IMG/VR virus record: IMGVR_UViG_3300029288_003766
Coordinates: 25,787 to 89,786 of that record
Length of the DNA stretch: 64,000 bases
Source: a virus
Taxonomy: Duplodnaviria; Heunggongvirae; Uroviricota; Caudoviricetes
Reading direction: 5' to 3' (one strand)
A model generated the notes under the pieces. That model ran no database searches and was not told the origin of the DNA. It was given only the letters and a program-made list of their open reading frames with translations. This document shows, piece after piece, positions 1,120-59,666 of this stretch. The position numbers and the translations under genes were made by a program. Every line of letters begins with the position of its first letter. Within the stretch, counting starts at the first letter, position 1.

Positions 1120-2427
1120 TTAGTCTCCTTTGATAACAGCCATTGGGCTTAACTCAACTAGGATTTCAACAAGATCATTTTGGTTGGCCATAACTTCTGA
1201 AATATCCTTATACGCTCCTGAGGCCTCATCCAAATTTTTCTGAGTTCTCACCCCATGGACAATGCCTTGATCATCAAGCTTCTTCTGCTCTTCTTCAAGG
1301 TTAAGTGTCTTGCAGGCCTGGTTTCTGCCCATCTTCCTACCTGCTCCGTGTGAGCAGCTCTCAAAGCTGTCTTTATTGCCGAGGCCTTTAACGATATATG
1401 ATTTGGTGCCCTGAGATCCCGGTATGATTCCTAGTTCACTGGTCTTAGCTGATGTAGCTCCCTTCCTGTGGACCATAACGTTTGAACCAAAATGGTTTTC
1501 AAGACGAGCATAATTGTGGGCTATGTTTATTTCACTTACAAAAGCAGACATTTCTATCTTTTCACCGCTCATTACTTTTTCTTTTATAAAAATATCCTGA
1601 AATATGCTTATAATTCTCTTCATCATCAGCTTCCTGTTTGCCAAAGCAAAGTCAATGCAATACTGCATTTCAGCTAGATAATTTTGTCCTTCTCTACTAT
1701 CTAATGGAAGAAAGGCCAATGAGTCTTCTTTCTTTTTAGGCAAGTGTGTGTTAGAAAACCAATTGATGTTTAAATTATACGCTAATTCATTATAATGTTT
1801 GGCTACTTTATAGCCTAAGTTTCGACTACCCGAATGGATCATAATCCAAACATTATTTTCATTATCTTTTTGAATTTCTATAAAATGATTGCCCGAACCA
1901 AGCGTGCCTAATTGGAATAGGGCATCAACATACTCGCCGGCAACAATAGGAATATTATATTCTTTAATTTCTTTATCAGGCATATCCGATTCTTTTTGAG
2001 CTTGTTTCTGGTGGTCAAACCCCACTGGAATAACTTCTCTTATCTTACCCATAATCTTCTTAAGAGTTTCTTTGTCTAGCTGATCTACTTTAAGAGAAGT
2101 CTTAACAGCGCACATACCACAACCTATATCCACTCCAACTGCATTAGGCACCACCACTCCTTCAGTGGCCAATACACCACCTATAGGCATACCGTAACCG
2201 CTATGGCAATCCGGCATAATAGCAATATGGTGAAAAGCAAAAGGTAGCCTAGCAAGATTAAGTATCTGTTCCCTGGCTGATTCCTCTACGCCCATATGAT
2301 GTATAGCACTCTCTTTTGTTTGGGGAAGTTCCGGCGGATATGACCAGCTCTCTCCCCATTTCAACCATAATTTAATTGGCACTTTTATTTTGTTGTCGAG
2401 TCCAGTAAAATCTATTTCACTTATCAT
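1120..2427 (-). CDS. rtcB: RNA-splicing ligase RtcB (3'-phosphate/5'-OH RNA ligase)
   Basis: 435 aa with hallmark RtcB motifs: MPDCHSGYG, GVDIGCGM, LGTLGSGNHFIEIQ, HSGSRNLG, HNYA, HRKGAT. Confidence 0.9.
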   Translation of the reverse strand: MISEIDFTGLDNKIKVPIKLWLKWGESWSYPPELPQTKESAIHHMGVEESAREQILNLARLPFAFHHIAIMPDCHSGYGMPIGGVLATEGVVVPNAVGVDIGCGMCAVKTSLKVDQLDKETLKKIMGKIREVIPVGFDHQKQAQKESDMPDKEIKEYNIPIVAGEYVDALFQLGTLGSGNHFIEIQKDNENNVWIMIHSGSRNLGYKVAKHYNELAYNLNINWFSNTHLPKKKEDSLAFLPLDSREGQNYLAEMQYCIDFALANRKLMMKRIISIFQDIFIKEKVMSGEKIEMSAFVSEINIAHNYARLENHFGSNVMVHRKGATSAKTSELGIIPGSQGTKSYIVKGLGNKDSFESCSHGAGRKMGRNQACKTLNLEEEQKKLDDQGIVHGVRTQKNLDEASGAYKDISEVMANQNDLVEILVELSPMAVIKGD

Positions 2428-14830: not shown

Positions 14831-15127
14831 CTGCCCTCCTTGTTAAAACTTCTATCTGAGTGTCTTTACTATATCATAGATCTTTTTGTTTGTCAAGCAT
14901 TATTTTTTCTATTTTAAGTGTTTGTTTCCAAGTAGTTATGCCTACGTTTTATAAATTTTATAAATCTATTTATGGATATTACTATAATTTTTTGTGTTTG
15001 TCAAGAACTTTTTTGTATAAGGTGTTCTAAAAATAATCATAATTTTTTCCTACTTCCCAGCTATTATATAGTAGGATGGGGTAGCAACCTTATATTACTA
15101 AAATCAAAACACAATTGGAGAAAAATT
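14831..15127. promoter_or_regulatory. AT-rich divergent control region between leftward and rightward gene blocks
   Basis: 297-bp gene-free region. It carries duplicated GTTTGTCAAG boxes (14886-14895 and 14994-15003), a TTTTATAAATTTTATAAA box at 14947-14964, and the conserved promoter-like motif at 15035-15076. Confidence 0.6.
15035..15076 (+). promoter_or_regulatory. conserved promoter-like motif copy A (ATCATAATTTTTTCCTACTTCCCAGCTATTATATAGTAGGAT)
   Basis: Near-identical 42-bp motif at 15035, 36409, 44347 and 59625. It contains a -10-like TATTAT/TATAAT and a flanking 6-bp inverted repeat CCTACT..AGTAGG. Each copy sits about 35-50 nt upstream of a plus-strand start codon. Confidence 0.55.
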
Positions 15128-20640: not shown

Positions 20641-20923
20641 AACTAAAAGAAAACCGGCGTATGAAATAGTTTTAAACGCCTTGCAAGCAGGATTGACTGT
20701 GAGGTTAGGTGACCGCGAGTATATGATGCAAGATGACCAAATAGTGATTAAAGTTACTTGCTATAAAAATGGACTTGATAAGGATTGTGAAGAGAAGATG
20801 TTGGTCATTGATATGACTCTAAACAATTTTATTAGTTTATGTAACCAAATTCCTGAGAATGAGTTGTTTGGAATAGGTTGTAGTGTTGCTTTGACTAATA
20901 TGCACAAGGAAAAGAACAGATGA
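20627..20923 (+). CDS. hypothetical protein (98 aa)
   Basis: Start taken at the ATG at 20627 (MKETKTKRK). Confidence 0.4.
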   Translation: MKETKTKRKPAYEIVLNALQAGLTVRLGDREYMMQDDQIVIKVTCYKNGLDKDCEEKMLVIDMTLNNFISLCNQIPENELFGIGCSVALTNMHKEKNR

Positions 20924-21879
20924 AAGAGCGAGAAATAGCAGAAAATAATCGTATACTGGAGATCATAACAGGCAGCCATCTTTACGGGACTGCCTCTGAG
21001 ACATCAGACAGGGATTATGTAGGTATTTTTCTTCCCAGCACTGAGTATGTTCTTGGTTTTAAAACCATAGAAGAAGTAGATTTCTCTGTTGTAGATAAAA
21101 ATGAAGCCGGCAAGAATACTGAAAAGGCCTTGGATCGAAAGCTTTATGAGTTTCGGAAATTTATGAAGCTTGCTATGGAGAACAACCCCAATATTATTGA
21201 GATTTTGTTTGCAAACCCGGAGAATATTGTATATAGCAATAATATAGGTAAGGAGTTGTTAGATATTAGGCATTTTTTTCCTTATAAAGGGCTTAAAGAG
21301 AAGTTTCTAGGATATGCTTTCAGCCAGAAGCATAAGATGGTTATCAAAAAAGACAACTACTTCGAATTGATGGATGCAGTAGGTTTTCTCAAAAACCAGA
21401 ACCCGGGTAAGATTATTCTTGAGATAGCTTTGGGCAACTGCCCCTACTTCCTTAAGAAACAGTTGGATAAGGAGAACAACATAAGCTTCATAAAAGTGGG
21501 TGATCTTAACCTTATGCCTCATATCACAACTAAGAAAGCTGCTGAGATGATATCTGATCGATTAGATAAGGTAGGAAACAGGGAAGAGCTGCTGACCAAA
21601 TATGGATATGACACCAAGTTTGCTTCGCATCTTATAAGGCTAATGCTAGAAGGAATTGAGTTGCTTAATACTGGAGAGATTAAATTTCCTCTACAGTACG
21701 CCGGAACATTACGAGATATTAGAAATGGTAAATGGAGTATAGAGGATATTTTTAACTATTCAGCTGAGCTGGAGAATGAAATGAGCTCTGTAGTTGAAAA
21801 ATCAACCTTACCTTTGAAACCAAACACTGATTTATTGGAAAGATTTACTATTTTAACATTGAGGGAGGCAATTATATGA
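20920..21879 (+). CDS. Pol-beta-superfamily nucleotidyltransferase
   Basis: ITGSHLYGTASETSDRDYVGIF matches the GS-x(9-13)-DxD nucleotidyltransferase signature; 319 aa. Confidence 0.55.
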   Translation: MKEREIAENNRILEIITGSHLYGTASETSDRDYVGIFLPSTEYVLGFKTIEEVDFSVVDKNEAGKNTEKALDRKLYEFRKFMKLAMENNPNIIEILFANPENIVYSNNIGKELLDIRHFFPYKGLKEKFLGYAFSQKHKMVIKKDNYFELMDAVGFLKNQNPGKIILEIALGNCPYFLKKQLDKENNISFIKVGDLNLMPHITTKKAAEMISDRLDKVGNREELLTKYGYDTKFASHLIRLMLEGIELLNTGEIKFPLQYAGTLRDIRNGKWSIEDIFNYSAELENEMSSVVEKSTLPLKPNTDLLERFTILTLREAII

Positions 21880-22738: not shown

Positions 22739-23586
22739 TGGGCGGCGGAATGTATTCAGTATCGGCAAGAGCAATGTCCGGCAGATCCGATTATTACAAA
22801 TCGGCGTCTCCTTCTGAAATATTTAAGGAGAAGAGTGTAAACAACGCCATGAATCCCAACGGAATCAAGATCAGGGAATCTAGGGATTCTAAAGAGCATC
22901 CAAACAGCTTGGCCATAATTCTGGCTTTGGATGTTACGGGTAGCATGGGCAGCATCCCCGTCCATCTTATTAAGGATGGGTTCCCGACTATGATGGAAAC
23001 CATCATAAAGGATGGAGTCAAAGATCCGCAAGTTCTGTTCTTAGGGATAGGTGATCATGAGTGTGACAGCGCGCCCCTACAGGTTGGCCAATTTGAGAGC
23101 TCAGATGAGCTCTTGGATCATTGGCTTCAGACTATCTATCTTGAGGGTGGGGGCGGAGGTAACGCCGGAGAATCATACCTCTTGGCCTATTACTTTGCGG
23201 CGAAGCATACCTCTATTGACTGCTTCGAGAAGAGGGGCCAGAAAGGTTGGCTCTTTACCGTTGGTGATGAGCCTCCGTTAAAGCGTGTTCCTAAGTCTTC
23301 CTTGCAGGAGATTATGGGAGATGGCCAGTATGATAATATGGATATAGGCACCCTGATAGATGAAGCGAGGAAAACATACAATGTCTATCATATCCTGATT
23401 AAACAAGGATCAGCTGGATCTCTGGATAGGACATATAATGCATGGAAGCAATTATTAGGAGATAACCTCCTAATCGCGGAGCATCATGAAGATGTTCCAA
23501 AGATTATCTCTGATACTATCAATAAAAACGTATCTCCGGCCAAAGTTGAAAGTGTAAAGCCGGAAACAGGAGATATTTTACTGTAA
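22738..23586 (+). CDS. von Willebrand factor A (vWA) domain protein
   Basis: LALDVTGSMG fits the MIDAS DxSxS motif. Confidence 0.55.
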   Translation: MGGGMYSVSARAMSGRSDYYKSASPSEIFKEKSVNNAMNPNGIKIRESRDSKEHPNSLAIILALDVTGSMGSIPVHLIKDGFPTMMETIIKDGVKDPQVLFLGIGDHECDSAPLQVGQFESSDELLDHWLQTIYLEGGGGGNAGESYLLAYYFAAKHTSIDCFEKRGQKGWLFTVGDEPPLKRVPKSSLQEIMGDGQYDNMDIGTLIDEARKTYNVYHILIKQGSAGSLDRTYNAWKQLLGDNLLIAEHHEDVPKIISDTINKNVSPAKVESVKPETGDILL

Positions 23587-24455
23587 TGAAGTGTCGATCA
23601 ACTAACAGTGGAGTCTATATGATTATTAATAATATAAATGGAAAATTCTATATAGGCTCCACTGTTAATTTCCAACAAAGATGTTATGAACATTTGAAAA
23701 GATTGAGGCAAAATAAACATCATTCTCCCATGCTTCAGAATTCTTGGAATAAATATGGGGAAGAATATTTTATATTTAATATTGTTGAAGAAGTATCTGG
23801 AGCATCTAATTTAATAGAAAAGGAACAATTTTGGATTGATTGTTTACACCCTAAATTTAATTGGGGCAAGGTTGCTGGTAGCCCCGCAGGTATTAAACGC
23901 TCAGAAAAAACAAAAGCCTTACTAAGGAAAATAACATTGAAACAATTTAAGGATAAAGGCCATCCTTGTAAAGGTAAAAAATATGGACCAGAAGCTAGAG
24001 AAAACATGTCTAACGCACATAAAGGAAAATCTTTAAAAGAAATGGGCCACAATAAAAAGTGTGTGTGCTCTGTTTGTAAAACCAAGAGACACGAGATAAT
24101 AGGTAATAAACACCCAAACTATGGAAAGCGGGGAAAATCCTTACCAGAGATGGGGCATAAGAAAAGATGTATGTGTTCTGTTTGTAAGGCTTCACGCCAC
24201 GAACTAGTTGGTAATAAAAACCCAAACTACAAAAAACAACCTTCTATTGAAGCGATAGAAAAAATTAGAAAAAAACTTTTAATACCAATTTCCCAGTATT
24301 CTAAAACAGGAGAGTTTATAAAAAATTGGGATGGCGCTATTATAGCTGCGCAAGAACTAAACTTATTTGCTACGGGAATTAATGCTTGTTTAAGAGGAAA
24401 ACTAAAGACTAGCGGAGGTTTTATTTGGAAATACATGGAGCCTTTATATGAGTAA
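23586..24455 (+). CDS. GIY-YIG homing endonuclease with NUMOD3 repeats
   Basis: GVYMIINNINGKFYIGST (GIY...YIG), repeated N.HKGK / NKHPNYGK NUMOD3-like units, duplicated CxCSVCK zinc knuckles, and a C-terminal IPISQYSKTGEFIKNWDGAIIAAQELN DNA-binding-like tail. Confidence 0.8.
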   Translation: MKCRSTNSGVYMIINNINGKFYIGSTVNFQQRCYEHLKRLRQNKHHSPMLQNSWNKYGEEYFIFNIVEEVSGASNLIEKEQFWIDCLHPKFNWGKVAGSPAGIKRSEKTKALLRKITLKQFKDKGHPCKGKKYGPEARENMSNAHKGKSLKEMGHNKKCVCSVCKTKRHEIIGNKHPNYGKRGKSLPEMGHKKRCMCSVCKASRHELVGNKNPNYKKQPSIEAIEKIRKKLLIPISQYSKTGEFIKNWDGAIIAAQELNLFATGINACLRGKLKTSGGFIWKYMEPLYE

Positions 24456-25569
24456 CTTTGTGGTTATAGGATGTCAATTCGGAGACGAAGGCAAGGGATT
24501 GGTAACTGATTGGTTATGTTCTCAATCCTCAAAACCGGCTGAGGTAGTAAGATTTACCGGGGGGCATCAATGCGGCCATACTGTTGTAGTCGACGGTAAG
24601 AGGCATGTGTTCTCCAGCTTTGGTTCAGGAACGTTAAGAGGAGTTCCTACTTATTGGTCACATTTCTGTACGGTTAACCCAATAGGATTTGTTAACGAGT
24701 TGATGATATTACAAGAAAAGGATATTGAACCTGAAATATTTATAGAAGGAGATTGCCCTGTTACTACTCCTTATGATGTTTTAAATAATAAGTGGGATCA
24801 CGAAATTAAACAACATGGTAGCTGTGGTGTAGGATTTGGAGCAACAATGCAGAGAGAAGAAGATTTCTATTCTTTGACATTTTATGATCTGTTCTTCCCC
24901 GATATATTAAGGGAAAAATTGAAGAATATTAATGAATGCTACTATGAGATGACCGGAGTAGATGTTAATATAGATTCATTCCTGAGATGCTGCAACACGA
25001 TGACAAAAATTGATAATATAAAGATGAAGGTCCCTACCGGGATTAAGGAAAAAATATTTGAGGGAGCGCAGGGGCTTATGTTAGATCAACATTTTGGAGT
25101 CTTTCCTAATGTTACAAGATCTAATACAGGAACTAAGAATTTAGTAGATGCTGGTTGGATTAAGGAAGAAGATGAAATATATTTAGTAACTCGTGCTTAC
25201 CAAACTAGGCACGGCAACGGGTTTATGACAAATGAAAATATTCCACATAATATTAAAAAAAATATACATGAAACTAACGTAGAGAACGCCTATCAAGGTA
25301 AATTTAGAAGGACCTTGTTAGATCTGTCTTTATTAGAATATAGCATAAACAAGGATGATTTTATACGCAACTCAAATAATAAGAGGCTAATAATTACCTG
25401 TCTTGATCATATAGAGAATGAACATAGATTTACATATAAAGGTGATACAGTAAACTGCTTGAACGAGGACGAATTTGTTTCTAAAATTTCGGATATTCTA
25501 GGTATAAAAACAATTTATTTAAGTCATTCAGAAGATTCTAAAAACATTATACAATGGAAAAAACAATGA
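24448..25569 (+). CDS. adenylosuccinate synthetase family protein (PurA homolog; candidate PurZ-type 2-aminoadenylosuccinate synthase)
   Basis: VVIGCQFGDEGKGLVTD (P-loop GDEGKGK-like) and GGHQCGHTV (GGHNAGHTV-like) PurA motifs. 373 aa, shorter than bacterial PurA. Phage context. Confidence 0.7.
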   Translation: MSNFVVIGCQFGDEGKGLVTDWLCSQSSKPAEVVRFTGGHQCGHTVVVDGKRHVFSSFGSGTLRGVPTYWSHFCTVNPIGFVNELMILQEKDIEPEIFIEGDCPVTTPYDVLNNKWDHEIKQHGSCGVGFGATMQREEDFYSLTFYDLFFPDILREKLKNINECYYEMTGVDVNIDSFLRCCNTMTKIDNIKMKVPTGIKEKIFEGAQGLMLDQHFGVFPNVTRSNTGTKNLVDAGWIKEEDEIYLVTRAYQTRHGNGFMTNENIPHNIKKNIHETNVENAYQGKFRRTLLDLSLLEYSINKDDFIRNSNNKRLIITCLDHIENEHRFTYKGDTVNCLNEDEFVSKISDILGIKTIYLSHSEDSKNIIQWKKQ

Positions 25570-26258
25570 AAAAAGGCGACGGACTGGATATTGGAAATCG
25601 GATGAAGCAGTATGAGAATATAACCGAAGCTCATCTGACTAGAAGAGTGCCTGTTATAGTTAGAGTAGATGGAAGAGCTTTTCACACCATAACTCGGACA
25701 AGGTTTAAGAGAGCATGGTCCCAAGAGTTTGTGGACCAGATGTCCGAGGTAGCTATGGTTGTCCAAGGAGATATGCAAGGTTGTGATTTCTGCTATGCCC
25801 AATCAGATGAGATCTCTTTTCTTTTAACCGATTACAAGACTATACGTACACAACCTTGGTTTGATTATGATCTTAGGAAGATAATCTCAATATCAGCTTC
25901 ATTAGCCAGTAGTGTATTTTCGAGGATTTATGGCAAGAATGTAGCCTTTGACAGCCGAGCGTTTAATATGCCTCAAGATGAGGTAGTAAATTACTTTATT
26001 TGGAGGCAGATAGATGCTACGCGCAACGCTATTCAGATGGCTGGCAGGGAGTACTTTTCCCACAAGGAATTAAATAATCTTAGCTGTAATGAAATACAAG
26101 AGAAGCTGTTTAAAGAGAAAGAGATCAATTTTAATGATTACCCTACTATAAGGAAGAGAGGATTTACTGTTATCAAGGGTGCTATTGATATTGGTATTCC
26201 TATCTTTACTCAGGATAGAAACTATGTTGAGAAGTTTGTTAATGTTCGAGAGGATTAA
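25554..26258 (+). CDS. Thg1-like protein (tRNA-His guanylyltransferase family, 3'-5' polymerase)
   Basis: VIVRVDGRAFH, AQSDEISF, SASLASSVFS and FIWRQIDATRN align with conserved Thg1/TLP blocks. True start may be the ATG at 25566 (ATGA overlap). Confidence 0.75.
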   Translation: MEKTMKKGDGLDIGNRMKQYENITEAHLTRRVPVIVRVDGRAFHTITRTRFKRAWSQEFVDQMSEVAMVVQGDMQGCDFCYAQSDEISFLLTDYKTIRTQPWFDYDLRKIISISASLASSVFSRIYGKNVAFDSRAFNMPQDEVVNYFIWRQIDATRNAIQMAGREYFSHKELNNLSCNEIQEKLFKEKEINFNDYPTIRKRGFTVIKGAIDIGIPIFTQDRNYVEKFVNVRED

Positions 26259-35508: not shown

Positions 35509-35870
35509 AACAACCAGGAGATCTTATTCAGTTAACAAACCAGGAATGTGAGATAGTAGAATGTGAGGAATGTGAGGATTTGATGGTCAACATTGATTTA
35601 GAGGACTTAGCTAGGGGAGATTTAGCAATCTTGAAGAAAGAGGGGATTAAAATTTCTAATCCTGATACAGATGATCCAATCTGCCTAGATTGTGAAATCA
35701 AGCGCGAGGACTCCGAACATGAGCTCAAGAGGAAAGTAAATAATTATATGTCTCCTAGCCACCACGATCACGATGATTCAAGCTTCTTTGGTGGTGGCGG
35801 TTTTGGAGGTGGGTTTGGAGGGTTTGGTGGTGGTGTAACTAGTGGTGGAGGAGCCACAGGAGGATTCTAG
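35505..35870 (+). CDS. hypothetical protein with Gly-rich C-terminal tail
   Basis: Acidic N-terminal part, tail FGGGGFGGGFGGFGGGVTSGGGATGGF. Confidence 0.45.
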   Translation: MKQPGDLIQLTNQECEIVECEECEDLMVNIDLEDLARGDLAILKKEGIKISNPDTDDPICLDCEIKREDSEHELKRKVNNYMSPSHHDHDDSSFFGGGGFGGGFGGFGGGVTSGGGATGGF

Positions 35871-36052
35871 TGTTTTTGGGGCTGCCTTGGTGGGTTTGGT
35901 TAATAATAGTTGCTCTTATAATCTTAGGAGCAATTGTGGGTAGTGATGATGATGGCGGTGGTGGTTCTTCGGGTGGTGGATATAGCGGGGGAGGTTTTGG
36001 AGGATTTGGCGGGGGATCTTCTTCTGGTGGTGGAGCATCAGGAGGATTCTAA
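35870..36052 (+). CDS. small TM protein with duplicated Gly-rich tail
   Basis: TM helix WWVWLIIVALIILGAIVG then GGGFGGFGGGSSSGGGASGGF, nearly identical to the upstream ORF tail. Confidence 0.45.
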   Translation: MFLGLPWWVWLIIVALIILGAIVGSDDDGGGGSSGGGYSGGGFGGFGGGSSSGGGASGGF

Positions 36053-36070
36053 TAATATTCATTAGGCAAG

Positions 36071-36150
36071 GCTTGGGTATCGTTTAACCCGATCCGCAGG
36101 AATGCGAAGTAGATTATGGATGTGTGTAGGTTCGAGTCCTACCCCAAGCC
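36071..36150 (+). ncRNA. tRNA-like element (acceptor stem + D-like arm + canonical T-arm, no anticodon arm)
   Basis: GCTTGGG (36071-36077) pairs perfectly with CCCAAGC (36143-36149). T-arm GTAGG-TTCGAGT-CCTAC at 36126-36142. D-like hairpin ATCG-TTTAACC-CGAT at 36079-36093. GNRA hairpin CGCA-GGAA-TGCG at 36095-36106. Confidence 0.35.
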
Positions 36151-36175
36151 GTGCCTGATAAATGAGGAAAATAAT

Positions 36176-36409
36176 ATGGATCAAGAAATTATTGACCGGA
36201 TAAATGATATACATGAACACCCTGAAAACCACAAACATTCTTATAATGACCTCCTAAAATGCTCACTAGTAAAAGGAATACTTGATTTAGCATTACTACA
36301 GGCTCACCAAGACTTCGTTGATCTAGGGTCAAATGGGGGCGTTAAATGTGATACTGTAGAAGGCCCTTGTGCTTGCGGTGCATGGCATGAAAAGAGTGAG
36401 AACAAATAA
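36176..36409 (+). CDS. hypothetical His/Cys-containing small protein (77 aa)
   Basis: I preferred the ATG at 36176 to the track start at 36116, because the upstream part forms the tRNA-like structure. Confidence 0.45.
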   Translation: MDQEIIDRINDIHEHPENHKHSYNDLLKCSLVKGILDLALLQAHQDFVDLGSNGGVKCDTVEGPCACGAWHEKSENK

Positions 36410-36450
36410 TCGTAATTTTTTCCTGTTTCCAGGCTATAATATAGTAGGAT
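36409..36450 (+). promoter_or_regulatory. conserved promoter-like motif copy B
   Basis: ATCGTAATTTTTTCCTGTTTCCAGGCTATAATATAGTAGGAT; 35 nt upstream of the ATG at 36485. Confidence 0.55.
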
Positions 36451-44353: not shown

Positions 44354-44388
44354 TTTTTTCCTACTTCCCAGCTATTATATAGTAGGAT
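44347..44388 (+). promoter_or_regulatory. conserved promoter-like motif copy C
   Basis: ATCATAATTTTTTCCTACTTCCCAGCTATTATATAGTAGGAT, identical to copy A; 29 nt upstream of ATG 44417. Confidence 0.55.
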
Positions 44389-51998: not shown

Positions 51999-52098
51999 TG
52001 AATAAAGTGGAAGCTAATATTTTTGTTAAGTTTTTGATAATTATTGCTGTTCTCGCCGCGTTCGCTATTTACCTTGGGCAGCATAGCAAATAAAATTT

Positions 52099-52365
52099 GG
52101 GGCATAGAGAGTTCCTATTAACTTTCTCATACAAAGACAATACTCTCCGCCCCTTGATTACGGGACATAAAGAGTTCCTATACTTGTTAGAAGGCAGCCC
52201 TTCGGGGCTGCATCAAAATTACTCTTCGTCCCTAATAACTAGGCAAAGGAAGTTCCTATTAAAATGGAAAATGTCCCCGAAAGGGGACACTTAAAATACT
52301 TCCCGCCTTATAATTTGGACATCGGGAGTTCCTATTAAAATCCTGTTAAGATATACTCCCCGTCC
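52099..52365 (+). repeat. tandem array of four degenerate ~65-80-bp units (GGRCAT..AGAGTTCCTAT ... AATACTCYCCGYCC)
   Basis: AGTTCCTAT at 52110, 52173, 52251 and 52327. ACTCYCCGYCC at 52142, 52221, 52298 and 52355. Units 2 and 3 each carry an inserted perfect hairpin, GCAGCCC-TTCG-GGGCTGC at 52194-52211 and GTCCCC-GAAA-GGGGAC at 52273-52288. Confidence 0.6.
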
Positions 52366-52386
52366 ATTTTATAAAAGGATGGATAG

Positions 52387-54141
52387 ATGAAATTTACAGA
52401 TGGTGTATATGGATATATTTATTTGGTACTTGATTTGGTAACTGGAATGCGTTATATTGGTAAGCACAAAAGCGGGGGGAAAATGAATCAATCAATAATA
52501 CGGTTATTTCATGCAGTTTCAATTGATAAGCATGACGGTAAGGCGGTTAACAAAAAATTGTTGTCAGAAACCGTCAAAAAAGGATTTATTTTTGCTCCTG
52601 AAGTAACAGCAAACTATTCTGAGAAAGAGTTGTTTGCTATGATTAATATCGTTGCTGATGAAGTAGGTTTAAGTTCTGATAAAATGAATAGTTCTTTTCA
52701 TAAATCGTGGCAAAAAGTGCGTGACGCTGATATTGAGCAATTAGTCCTCGAACAGATATTGCACTACATCACTACTTATGGTTTTGAAGCTATGGGTATT
52801 TATAGGAATGACTCTATCTACATTCCTCTTGAAGATTTAAAAATTCCTAAGTTAAACCTTGACAAAATATCTTTAGTTGTTATTAAAGGATATACCAAAG
52901 AAGAATTAAAGGAAAAATTAATCAACCTTTTGGGATCGGGCATTGCGTTAAAAGAGGATACAAAGAAAGATGTGATAGATATTATTACCTTTGTTGGCTT
53001 AAACGAGAACGAGGTATACAACATCAAGAATAAGGAAGTAAGGGCTGCCTTATACGATTATATGGATATATGTCCTATGCCTGAGGATTACCTTAATTCT
53101 ATTACTGCTTTATTGAAGCACGGAGTGGATATAGATAAGGATAATCTTATGAAAGAGCTTGGTAGAGTAAACACCTTTAGGAAGATACGATTAGCTTACG
53201 CTTTAAAGTATAGGACTAATGATAATGATGGGGTAGTAGTTGACTCAATACTTTACCGCATAAGGAATGGCAAGAGCTACGCTACAGGTTTTGATCTTGA
53301 TGACCCTAAAGGAATCATATTTAGGAATACAGTAAGAATATTAGATATTGTCCTTGATTCAATGGTGGATGATATTAGGCCTAATGTAGAAGGTAAGAAG
53401 ATCTGCATTCCTAAGAACATACAATATGCTTTGCCTACTACTGAGAAACAGTTTACCGGAGATTTCCCTTCAGGAACCTATGTTTCTTTCCCTAAGGATG
53501 CAATTGTGGGGGTTCACTGGGGTGATGTTGATTCTAACAGGATAGATCTTGACCTGTCTTTAATCAGGTGCGACGGTGGAAAGATTGGGTGGGATGCTTC
53601 TTACAGGAGTAAGGGCGGAGATACATTGTTCTCCGGTGATATGACTGCAGCTCCTAAGCCTAATGGTGCCTCAGAATTGTTTTATATCCAGAGGCAGACT
53701 AATGCTTCTTATATTCTTATGGTCAATTACTTTAACTATGATCAGGCTGTTCCTGTGCCTTTTAAGATTATTGTGGCCAGTGAGCAGGTTAATAAGGTCT
53801 TTGGCCATAACTATATGATTAACCCCAATAATATAGTCTGTGTTGCTAAGTCTAAAATGACTGAGAAACAGAAAGTACTTGGGCTACTGGTTACAACTCC
53901 CGATGAGTGTAGATTCTACTTTGCTGAGGCAAATATGGGTAATTCAATAACATCGGATGGTAATACTTATACAGAACAGGCACGAAAGTATTTGTTTGAT
54001 TTCTACACAAACACAATCAGCTTTAATGATATCTTGAGGAGGGCGGGAGCTGTGTTAGTAGGTAAGCAGAAGGATTGTGATATTGACCTTTCATATGAAA
54101 CGCTTGAGAAAGATAGTTTGATTAAGTTGATAACTAAGTGA
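52387..54141 (+). CDS. large protein with N-terminal GIY-YIG-like module fused to uncharacterised C-terminal region (584 aa)
   Basis: N-terminus GVYGYIYLVLDLVTGMRYIGKHK is GIY-YIG-like. The remaining 500 aa match nothing I recognise. Confidence 0.5.
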   Translation: MKFTDGVYGYIYLVLDLVTGMRYIGKHKSGGKMNQSIIRLFHAVSIDKHDGKAVNKKLLSETVKKGFIFAPEVTANYSEKELFAMINIVADEVGLSSDKMNSSFHKSWQKVRDADIEQLVLEQILHYITTYGFEAMGIYRNDSIYIPLEDLKIPKLNLDKISLVVIKGYTKEELKEKLINLLGSGIALKEDTKKDVIDIITFVGLNENEVYNIKNKEVRAALYDYMDICPMPEDYLNSITALLKHGVDIDKDNLMKELGRVNTFRKIRLAYALKYRTNDNDGVVVDSILYRIRNGKSYATGFDLDDPKGIIFRNTVRILDIVLDSMVDDIRPNVEGKKICIPKNIQYALPTTEKQFTGDFPSGTYVSFPKDAIVGVHWGDVDSNRIDLDLSLIRCDGGKIGWDASYRSKGGDTLFSGDMTAAPKPNGASELFYIQRQTNASYILMVNYFNYDQAVPVPFKIIVASEQVNKVFGHNYMINPNNIVCVAKSKMTEKQKVLGLLVTTPDECRFYFAEANMGNSITSDGNTYTEQARKYLFDFYTNTISFNDILRRAGAVLVGKQKDCDIDLSYETLEKDSLIKLITK

Positions 54142-59624: not shown

Positions 59625-59666
59625 ATCATAACTTTTTCCTATCTCCCAGCTATAATATAGTAGGAG
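59625..59666 (+). promoter_or_regulatory. conserved promoter-like motif copy D
   Basis: ATCATAACTTTTTCCTATCTCCCAGCTATAATATAGTAGGAG; 19 nt upstream of the ATG at 59685. Confidence 0.5.

Follow-up and report, generated by a model that had tools for sequence, protein, structure and literature searches.

A tRNA-like element without an anticodon arm in a gene spacer of a jumbo phage

Can a short spacer between two genes of a jumbo phage specify an RNA that keeps the acceptor and T arms of a tRNA without being able to decode, and is such an element maintained by the phage or a relic of a tRNA gene? The question was raised by a locus within a stretch of 64,000 nt (the window), which corresponds to positions 80,501-144,500 of a 214,834-bp metagenomic contig of a jumbo phage. 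The window carries T4-like replication genes (DnaB, primase, UvsW, clamp loader, gp32, UvsX, and DNA polymerase) as well as PurZ. A first-pass annotation had described here a tRNA-like element without an anticodon arm in a phage rich in tRNA-repair enzymes, and such enzymes were indeed found: RtcB (1120-2427, minus strand, 34 kb from the element and on the other strand), RlaP (20920-21879), a Thg1-family 3'-5' nucleotidyltransferase (25554-26258, PF04446, E=1e-22, 10 kb from the element) and an RNA ligase (Rnl, 33200-34117). A plus-strand cassette encoding LemA, a 109-aa protein, TPM, a 121-aa protein and a 60-aa protein (34129-36052, Pfam matches) lies immediately upstream of the element. The element fills a 123-nt spacer that extends from a TAATAA double stop (36050-55) to the ribosome-binding site of the next ORF, and it is co-oriented with all neighbouring genes. 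A consensus scan found neither a sigma-70-type promoter nor an intrinsic terminator beside it; hairpin-plus-U-run terminators are used by the phage elsewhere, and the recurrent promoter-like motif CAGCTATAATATAGTAGGA marks only the start of the next operon, at 36431. Because no promoter or terminator of its own was found and the next promoter-like motif lies at 36431, the element is probably co-transcribed with its neighbours. The ordinary tRNA genes of the phage (four tRNA-Leu and three tRNA-Arg) are located about 44 kb upstream, and the element is solitary and outlying from this array. Rfam calls six of these seven genes, with scores of 37-57 bits.

The element (36070-36150, plus strand) reads GGCUUGGG-UA-UCGUUUAACCCGA-U-C-CGCAGGAAUGCG-AAGUAGAUUAUGGAUGUGU-GUAGGUUCGAGUCCUAC-CCCAAGCC. 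Its acceptor-like helix is formed by a 5' strand at 36070-36077 (GGCUUGGG) and a 3' strand at 36143-36150 (CCCAAGCC) that is not followed by an encoded CCA, and contains eight Watson-Crick pairs, each with a probability of at least 0.97. A perfect 7-bp acceptor had been annotated (GCTTGGG, 36071-77, with CCCAAGC, 36143-49). The perfect pairing was confirmed but the length was not, since G36070 (position -1) pairs with C36150 and extends the helix to 8 bp; in addition, an 8-bp leader/trailer helix had been overlooked. This lower helix joins 36061-36068 (AUUAGGCA) to 36152-36159 (UGCCUGAU) with one G.U pair and pairing probabilities of 0.85-1.0, and a single A.G mismatch separates it from the acceptor-like helix. 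Between the acceptor strands, U8 and a D-like hairpin (AUCG-UUUAACC-CGAU; 36078-36093, hairpin at 36079-93, pairing probability 0.67-0.85) come first. The hairpin has a 4-bp stem and a 7-nt loop, UUUAACC, in which neither G18G19 nor A14 can be read. The anticodon-arm position is occupied by the hairpin CGCA-GGAA-UGCG with a GNRA tetraloop (36095-36106, pairing probability 0.90-0.97), followed by a linker of 19 nt (36107-36125, AAGUAGAUUAUGGAUGUGU) and by the T arm GUAGG-UUCGAGU-CCUAC (36126-36142) with a G53:C61 closing pair and a TTCRANY loop. All of these parts had been listed in the first-pass annotation and were found where it had placed them. The whole unit of about 100 nt is a closed structure, a 17-position rod carrying three hairpins, of which the T arm is the last. 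Its five helices, the four short ones and the lower helix, are mismatch-free, and the GC content of the element is 50-52% as compared with about 37% for the genome and the window. Because the loop of the middle hairpin has 4 nt instead of 7, there is no anticodon, and because the D loop lacks G18G19 the tRNA elbow is probably missing.

The cloverleaf-like fold (-38.2 kcal/mol) competes with an alternative fold that has the minimum free energy (-38.8 kcal/mol). In the latter, the 19-nt linker is paired with the 3' side of the T arm, and by thermodynamics alone the pairing probability of the T arm is only 0.19. The linker at 36107-25, annotated as 19 unpaired nucleotides, is thus present but able to pair; a weak variable-arm-like hairpin (36109-14 with 36120-25) is also possible within it. 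Similarly, the claim that no anticodon stem can be formed holds for the place taken by the 4-bp GGAA hairpin but needs qualification elsewhere: one weak candidate arm with a 7-nt loop exists, GUAGA-UUAUGGA-UGUGU (36109-25), the sole one in the element. It has four of five pairs, two of them G.U, and a G.G mismatch, abuts the T stem and leaves no variable loop. As a separate observation, UUAUGGA at 36114-20 is one substitution away from the His loop UUGUGGA of locus L018, in a poor surrounding stem.

The first-pass annotation had also placed an ORF start, ATG 36116, inside the element. If real, this start would make part of the element the coding N-terminus of the downstream ORF: it is in frame, gives a 97-aa ORF and was chosen by one gene caller on another contig (P0102). 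However, the downstream ORF (77 aa; 36164-36409 with its ribosome-binding site, plus strand) has a strong GAGGAA ribosome-binding site at 36164-69 in front of ATG 36176 and begins 17 nt past the end of the lower helix. The same start, 36176, was chosen when genes were called independently on the source contig. Five homologs of the 77-aa protein, 69-75 aa long, align from the methionine at 36176, and the 20 extra residues obtained from ATG 36116 have no counterpart in any of them. Judged by these comparisons, ATG 36116 is not a real start and the element is intergenic; the coding alternative is refuted as far as sequence analysis permits.

The tRNA-like arrangement exceeds what is expected by chance. 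A perfect T arm with a TTCRANY loop occurs once in 128 kb (both strands) against 0.22 expected, and the number of such T arms that adjoin a 7-bp acceptor at the spacing of a tRNA is one, as compared with 0.01 expected per shuffled window (2 of 300 shuffles). That the element is a chance structure or the N-terminus of a coding sequence is, with this expectation and the unmatched residues, hardly credible. The folding z-score is -4.4, and in a ranking of 12,782 windows from both strands by stability only one 100-nt locus surpasses the element. An identical copy was found in an independent JGI sample (L115), which rules out an assembly artefact. Moreover, the T arm is nearer to the tRNA consensus than the T arms of six of the seven tRNAs of the phage itself, and the leader/trailer extension comprises 9 pairs here as compared with a maximum of 5 in 334 distinct phage tRNA and tRNA-like genes. 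These results demonstrated that the structure is tRNA-derived and beyond chance, and that the element, of tRNA descent, is incapable of decoding. The original description of a tRNA-like element that has the acceptor/T-arm half and lacks the anticodon arm therefore stands.

Of the two observations that had been named as speaking against this description, rejection by detection tools was made (ARAGORN and Rfam), whereas translation from ATG 36116 was not borne out. ARAGORN called no tRNA or tmRNA gene in the whole window, and Rfam at gathering thresholds gave no match for the element. In a permissive Rfam scan the best match within the tRNA clan was tRNA-Sec (RF01852; 22.2 bits, E=0.035, threshold 47). 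The score of RF00005 (tRNA), whose gathering score is 29 bits, is consequently below 22.2 bits. No Y-RNA or tmRNA family appeared at E≤10. Comparison with the features of canonical tRNAs revealed a 7-bp acceptor abutting a 5-bp T stem, the T54-Psi55-C56-R57-A58 loop and U8; a 5-bp anticodon stem with a 7-nt loop (U33, purine 37) and a D loop with G18G19/A14 are lacking. The 8/5 acceptor/T configuration of tRNA-Sec is present, whereas the 47-bit score, the UCA and the D stem of tRNA-Sec are not (4 bp with a 7-nt loop as compared with 6 bp with a 4-nt loop). The 8-bp stem with its G-1:C73 pair (G36070:C36150) corresponds to a tRNA-His-type acceptor, but may not signal His identity because the helix continues beyond this pair; the GUG anticodon of tRNA-His is missing along with the anticodon loop. 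Position 3:70 is U:A and not the G3:U70 of tmRNA. The structure of a processing signal is present, namely an acceptor/T-arm minihelix in a spacer between co-oriented genes, presumably transcribed. The tRNA ancestry and the loss of decoding features expected of a tRNA pseudogene are present as well, and the only other copy is identical; the extra helix speaks for maintenance and the absence from relatives against it.

Several other assignments were considered and rejected. An intron-containing tRNA is not encoded: the tRNA-Thr reported by ARAGORN in relaxed mode is spurious, as it borrows upstream coding sequence, and there is no bulge-helix-bulge motif. The window holds no second copy of the 3' half of the element, as an att site or integration remnant would have, and no further copies of the element, nor is a target-site duplication visible in its flanks, as for a MITE. 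An intrinsic terminator was dismissed for lack of a U run, and an antisense seed in the 19-nt linker was dismissed since the window contains only chance-level complementarities of 10 nt. Finally, the T arms of the tRNAs of the phage differ from that of the element, whose T loop is nearer to the tRNA consensus; a decayed paralog of the phage's own array is therefore excluded.

In the relatives L113 and L114 (DnaB identity 76% and 61%, respectively), the RNA ligase gene is followed by the replication initiator gene, in L113 with one small unrelated ORF (118 aa) between them. The region 34129-36409 (LemA, 109 aa, TPM, 121 aa, 60 aa, the element and the 77-aa ORF) is thus, by this comparison, a lineage-specific insertion absent from the relatives. 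No element-like sequence was detected in 58 related loci (386 kb), consisting of 56 DnaB-family metagenome loci together with L113 and L114. Diverged homologs were not found, and the sole other copy is the identical one. The exact 25-nt T-arm/acceptor string had no match in IMG/VR, and a gapped acceptor/T-loop pattern had 39 matches there, all of them ordinary tRNAs or chance. Blastn against 50,697 phage genomes yielded only matches of T-arm length. The pattern GTGTRGGTTCGAGTCCYACCCC occurs in 51 IMG/VR loci, which comprise cyanophage class-II-like tRNAs, att-type 3' tRNA fragments and normal tRNAs, and only L010 is similar to the element. The 8-bp acceptor/T-loop pattern had no match in 185,579 species genomes, and hence a donor among host tRNAs was not identified. 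For the replication initiator, the relatives come from unrelated small phages and have only the N-terminal domain in common. A search of IMG/VR for relatives of the Thg1-like protein found none. At 23 loci, bacterial LemA-TPM operons are not followed by any tRNA-like element, which indicates that the element did not arrive with the LemA/TPM cassette. Two other jumbo phages have homologs of the 77-aa ORF within tRNA arrays, which suggests that such an array was the joint source of the element and this ORF.

When a covariance model was made from this one sequence, it gave a single unbiased match, L010:5083-5169 (27.4 bits), a tRNA-like gene that ARAGORN does not call and that is situated within the tRNA array of an IMG/VR phage of 188 kb. 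At the anticodon position this gene carries a stem of 5 bp capped by the tetraloop AGAU; it lacks the lower helix and has C-1:G73. The string AAG...GTGTGTRGGTTCGAGTCCYACCCCA (AAG...GUGUGURGGUUCGAGUCCYACCCCA) is common to both. A scan of 1.5 Mb of phage loci, with 500 ARAGORN tRNAs, also revealed L011:2467-2531 and the pair L093:3813-3878 and L095:10819-10884 with truncated anticodon hairpins. The Rfam tRNA scores are 52 bits for L011:2467, 38 bits for L010:5083 and at most 22 bits for the element, a graded series that is compatible either with a decay continuum or with a recurrent class. The survey suggests that truncated anticodon hairpins occur in roughly 1% of the tRNA-like genes on phage contigs. 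ARAGORN misses such genes and the Rfam tRNA model calls two of the four, which has a bearing on censuses of phage tRNAs.

Taking all conceivable roles together, we consider it rather probable that the element is a maintained structural RNA. As a specific role we tentatively favour a non-decoding tRNA-like module that is maintained as a cis-acting signal for RNA processing or stability. We infer that it would be transcribed, recognized by tRNA-processing enzymes and beneficial to the phage. The element would be transcribed together with the LemA/TPM cassette and the 77-aa ORF. Its acceptor/T-arm minihelix would be a target of RNase P, RNase Z, and the CCA-adding enzyme, and the long closing helix might serve as an entry site for RNase III or as a block to exonucleases. 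Cleavage would split the mRNA of the upstream cassette from that of the 77-aa ORF, and a stable tRNA-like RNA about 80 nt long would be set free as a by-product. Minihelices made of an acceptor and a T arm are known substrates of RNase P, RNase Z, and the CCA-adding enzyme. M1 RNA cleaves a Y RNA whose acceptor-like stem has 7 bp, and CCA is added to this RNA (PMC4201824). The module reading is supported by the beyond-chance combination of T arm and acceptor, by the z-score and the stability rank, as well as by the spacer position, the co-orientation, the lack of an adjacent promoter or terminator and the exclusion of a coding role. Maintenance is favoured above all by the 9-pair leader/trailer extension, and also by the perfect helices, the GNRA cap and the high GC content; mismatch-free helices and a GNRA-capped middle hairpin do not look like random erosion. 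Against the module speak its absence from the syntenic site of the relatives (DnaB identity 61-76%) and from the 58 related loci, and the fact that the sole other copy is identical, with no diverged homologs. Extensive pairing of leader and trailer usually hinders RNase P, and bacterial RNase P contacts the tRNA elbow, which is probably missing here as the D loop lacks G18G19. The hairpin that competes with the T arm counts against it too, as does an ascertainment bias, since such an element is noticed only when acceptor and T arms happen to be intact.

Somewhat unlikely, in our judgement, is that the element is a functionless relic of a tRNA gene that left a tRNA array together with the 77-aa ORF and whose D loop, anticodon loop and variable arm disappeared after arrival. 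This would agree with a singleton inside a lineage-specific insertion, with the array location of the 77-aa ORF homologs in the two other jumbo phages, and with the graded Rfam scores (52, 38, and at most 22 bits) and truncated anticodon loops, a pattern expected of progressive decay. The several separate lesions (no G18G19, a 4-nt loop, an eroded variable region) point the same way; if few events produced them, their all falling within the middle 48 nt would not be improbable, and only relics with surviving acceptor and T arms can be noticed. Pseudo-tRNAs are, moreover, common in phages. A relic, however, leaves the 8-bp leader/trailer helix unexplained, given that an extension of at least 6 pairs occurs in none of the 334 phage tRNA and tRNA-like genes, and it accounts poorly for helices that are all perfect, one of them GNRA-capped, and for 50% GC in a 37% GC genome. 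The T loop, nearer to consensus than those of the phage's own tRNAs, also shows that the element is not a decayed paralog of that array.

We regard it as unlikely that the element acts in trans as a tRNA mimic, that is, a processed top half of a tRNA, possibly with CCA and charged, that titrates or engages a tRNA-binding protein. Candidate partners would be a host defence factor targeting tRNAs, HisRS, or the Thg1-like, RlaP or ligase enzymes of the phage. G-1:C73 is the main identity element of tRNA-His, and the 8-bp acceptor with this pair fits such a role, but the pair may be merely the first of a longer helix. The lower helix buries the ends needed for charging, CCA is not encoded and the elbow is not conserved. 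Genes for a Thg1-family protein, RlaP, RtcB, and RNA ligase lie in the same window, yet the Thg1 gene, at 10 kb, is not linked to the element, and relatives of the protein were not found in viral contigs. Thg1 is only sporadic in jumbo phages (PMC7824862). A GNRA tetraloop in place of the anticodon loop would confer insensitivity to anticodon nucleases; on the other hand, an RNA without an anticodon is no decoy for them. L010:5083-5169, in its 188-kb phage tRNA array, is a possible second example, although it has no lower helix and carries C-1:G73. The wider proposal that jumbo phages with tRNA-repair genes also encode selected anticodon-less 'top-half' tRNA mimics acting in trans is quite improbable. 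Its examples would be the element and the tetraloop-capped tRNA-likes of L010, L011 and L093/L095. Such RNAs could be minihelices of His identity (G-1:C73) that are processed, given CCA and charged; decoys for host defences that sense or cut the acceptor/T-arm half of tRNAs; or dedicated substrates or cofactors of the phage Thg1-like and ligase enzymes. Far less probable still is a Y-RNA-like module tethering a Ro/Rsr protein, a link drawn in the first-pass annotation that did not hold up. A long 5'/3' helix and a tRNA-like domain in the order D, short arm, T are reminiscent of Yrn1 of D. radiodurans (PMC4201824), and RtcB is encoded in the window, although 34 kb away. However, no Y-RNA family matched in Rfam at E≤10, and TROVE/Ro was found neither in the 48 window ORFs scanned (all those of at least 440 aa and the neighbours of the element among them) nor in the recorded Pfam matches for the genes of the 10 kb left of the window (L139), a search within 74 kb of the 215-kb contig. 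In bacteria and phages, the gene for a Y RNA lies beside that for Ro (PMC4201824). Furthermore, the helix reads GGCAAGG and not the motif GNCGAAN0-1G, and the order D-like hairpin, short hairpin, T arm differs from that of YrlA, in which the hairpins follow as T, acceptor-like, D (PMC4201824).

Among known RNAs, the favoured processing or stability module can be compared with tRNA-like signals in longer transcripts. Plant mitochondrial t-elements are tRNA-like processing signals. MALAT1 mascRNA and GUT15 are tRNA-like RNAs (PMC6152437). Like the element, these signals and RNAs keep the acceptor/T-arm half and have a degenerate anticodon region; as is predicted for the element, they are embedded in longer transcripts. 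They are eukaryotic or organellar, unlike the phage element, and cleavage by RNase P and RNase Z sets their RNA ends. We know of no signal of the t-element or mascRNA type with a long closing helix. A long terminal helix, together with a tRNA-like domain, a canonical T arm and a non-decoding nature, is shared with the bacterial Y RNAs YrlA and Yrn1 (PMC4201824), which likewise occur in genomes with RtcB-type repair genes. The element differs from them in having no adjacent Ro/Rsr found, no Ro-binding motif, no Rfam match and an order unlike that of YrlA. In the tRNA-like domain of tmRNA, too, an acceptor and a T arm are present, while the D region is reduced and the anticodon arm is missing. 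In contrast, the element measures 81-100 nt, has neither an internal reading frame nor pseudoknots, carries U3:A70 in place of G3:U70 and is not matched by ARAGORN or Rfam.

Irregular tRNAs are known in phages (PMC5389517). The tRNA pseudogenes of phage arrays (L010:5083-5169 and L011:2467-2531) are also tRNA-derived with intact acceptor and T arms, have a short stem with a 4-nt loop at the anticodon position and are missed by ARAGORN. However, they lie inside arrays, score above the Rfam tRNA threshold and have a GG-containing D loop without a leader/trailer helix, whereas the element stands alone at a distance of 44 kb from the array, reaches at most 22 bits and possesses the extra 8-bp helix. 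Phage T4 species 1 and 2 (rnaC and rnaD) are small stable RNAs that accompany tRNA genes and are matured by enzymes of the tRNA type; their function is not known. Unlike the element, they are located in a tRNA cluster and are longer. The tRNA-Other of Bacillus cereus is a functional pseudo-tRNA, non-translational yet with a phenotype (PMC3399842), and shows that 'pseudo-tRNA' need not mean non-functional, although it is a chromosomal gene with a full cloverleaf including the anticodon arm.

Elements that descend from tRNAs and do not decode are therefore already known; the form described here is so far known only in this phage. As a mere relic, it would be an ordinary outcome of the turnover of tRNA arrays. 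The unusually complete RNA-repair set of the phage (RtcB, Rnl, RlaP, and Thg1-like) makes the element a concrete candidate substrate. If it is maintained, it would represent tRNA-like 'punctuation' or mimicry in a bacterial virus, achieved with the acceptor/T-arm half alone. To our knowledge this principle is not documented for phage operons, and it is familiar from organelles, eukaryotic long non-coding RNAs, tmRNA, and Y RNAs.

Truncated tRNA-like genes were also found on other phage contigs. At four loci (L010:5083-5169, L011:2467-2530, L093:3813-3878, and L095:10819-10884), all located in phage tRNA arrays, a short stem with a loop of 4-5 nt replaces the anticodon arm. None of these four genes was detected by ARAGORN, whereas the Rfam tRNA model still called two of them, at 38 and 52 bits. 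Such genes account for about 1% of all tRNA-like genes across the surveyed 1.5 Mb. A different irregularity was observed in a tRNA gene on a 203-kb contig (NCBI GCA_044343285.1; L044:3431-3533), which ends in ACCA and carries a 26-nt hairpin-forming insertion in its anticodon loop. This gene was missed by default ARAGORN and was called as tRNA-Leu(CAA) with the intron option; TCA can be read as an alternative anticodon.

A homolog of the 77-aa ORF that directly follows the tRNA-like element in the window (36176-36409, +) lies approximately 470 nt downstream of the L044 tRNA gene. The ORF and its homologs P0046-P0050 form a conserved family of small proteins (69-77 aa). Besides the window, the gene was seen in three contexts, and in two of these it sits within the tRNA array of a jumbo phage. 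The family had no match in Pfam or PHROG. Its invariant motifs HPENHKH, NGGVxCD, and GPCxCGxWH look like a zinc-binding site.

The window contains an unusually full set of RNA-repair genes, encoding a Thg1-family 3'-5' nucleotidyltransferase (25554-26258, +), an RlaP nucleotidyltransferase (20920-21879, +), RtcB (1120-2427, -), and an Rnl-type ligase (33200-34117, +). Thg1-family enzymes are rare among phages (PMC7824862). The presence of a PurZ gene (24448-25569), which adjoins a GIY-YIG homing endonuclease gene (23586-24455), is suggestive of a 2-aminoadenine genome. The 100-nt folds of highest stability in the window (23061-23170 and 23571-23700, +) fall inside an unannotated 282-aa ORF and at its end, directly adjoining the endonuclease gene; neither gave an Rfam intron match at gathering score.

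Four tandem structured units spaced 63-78 nt apart (52097-52385, +; fold z-score -4.2) fill the intergenic region 5' of an unannotated 584-aa ORF (52387-54141). Each unit starts with GGRCA..RGAGTTCCTAT, continues with a variable GC-rich hairpin and ends with ACTCYYCGYCC. The region had no match in Rfam and could represent an origin of the iteron type or a non-coding RNA that is repeated. In addition, a motif resembling a promoter, (C)AGCTATWATATAG(TAGGA), recurs 40-50 nt 5' of start codons (36431-36447, 59647-59663, 44369-44382, and 15058-15071, all +), and sequences like it occur ahead of the replication-initiator gene in the related phage loci L113 and L114. This motif may constitute a phage-specific promoter class.

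The phage's own tRNA array is located approximately 44 kb upstream of the element (L139:18605-20016, corresponding to contig positions 71,327-72,738). It runs to the edge of the DNA examined and includes four tRNA-Leu genes (anticodons TAG, AAG, TAA, and CAA) followed by three tRNA-Arg genes. CCA is encoded in some of the array tRNA genes and absent from others. The four tRNA-Leu genes are short, 75-77 nt each, and lack the long variable arm that is normally the defining feature of tRNA-Leu.
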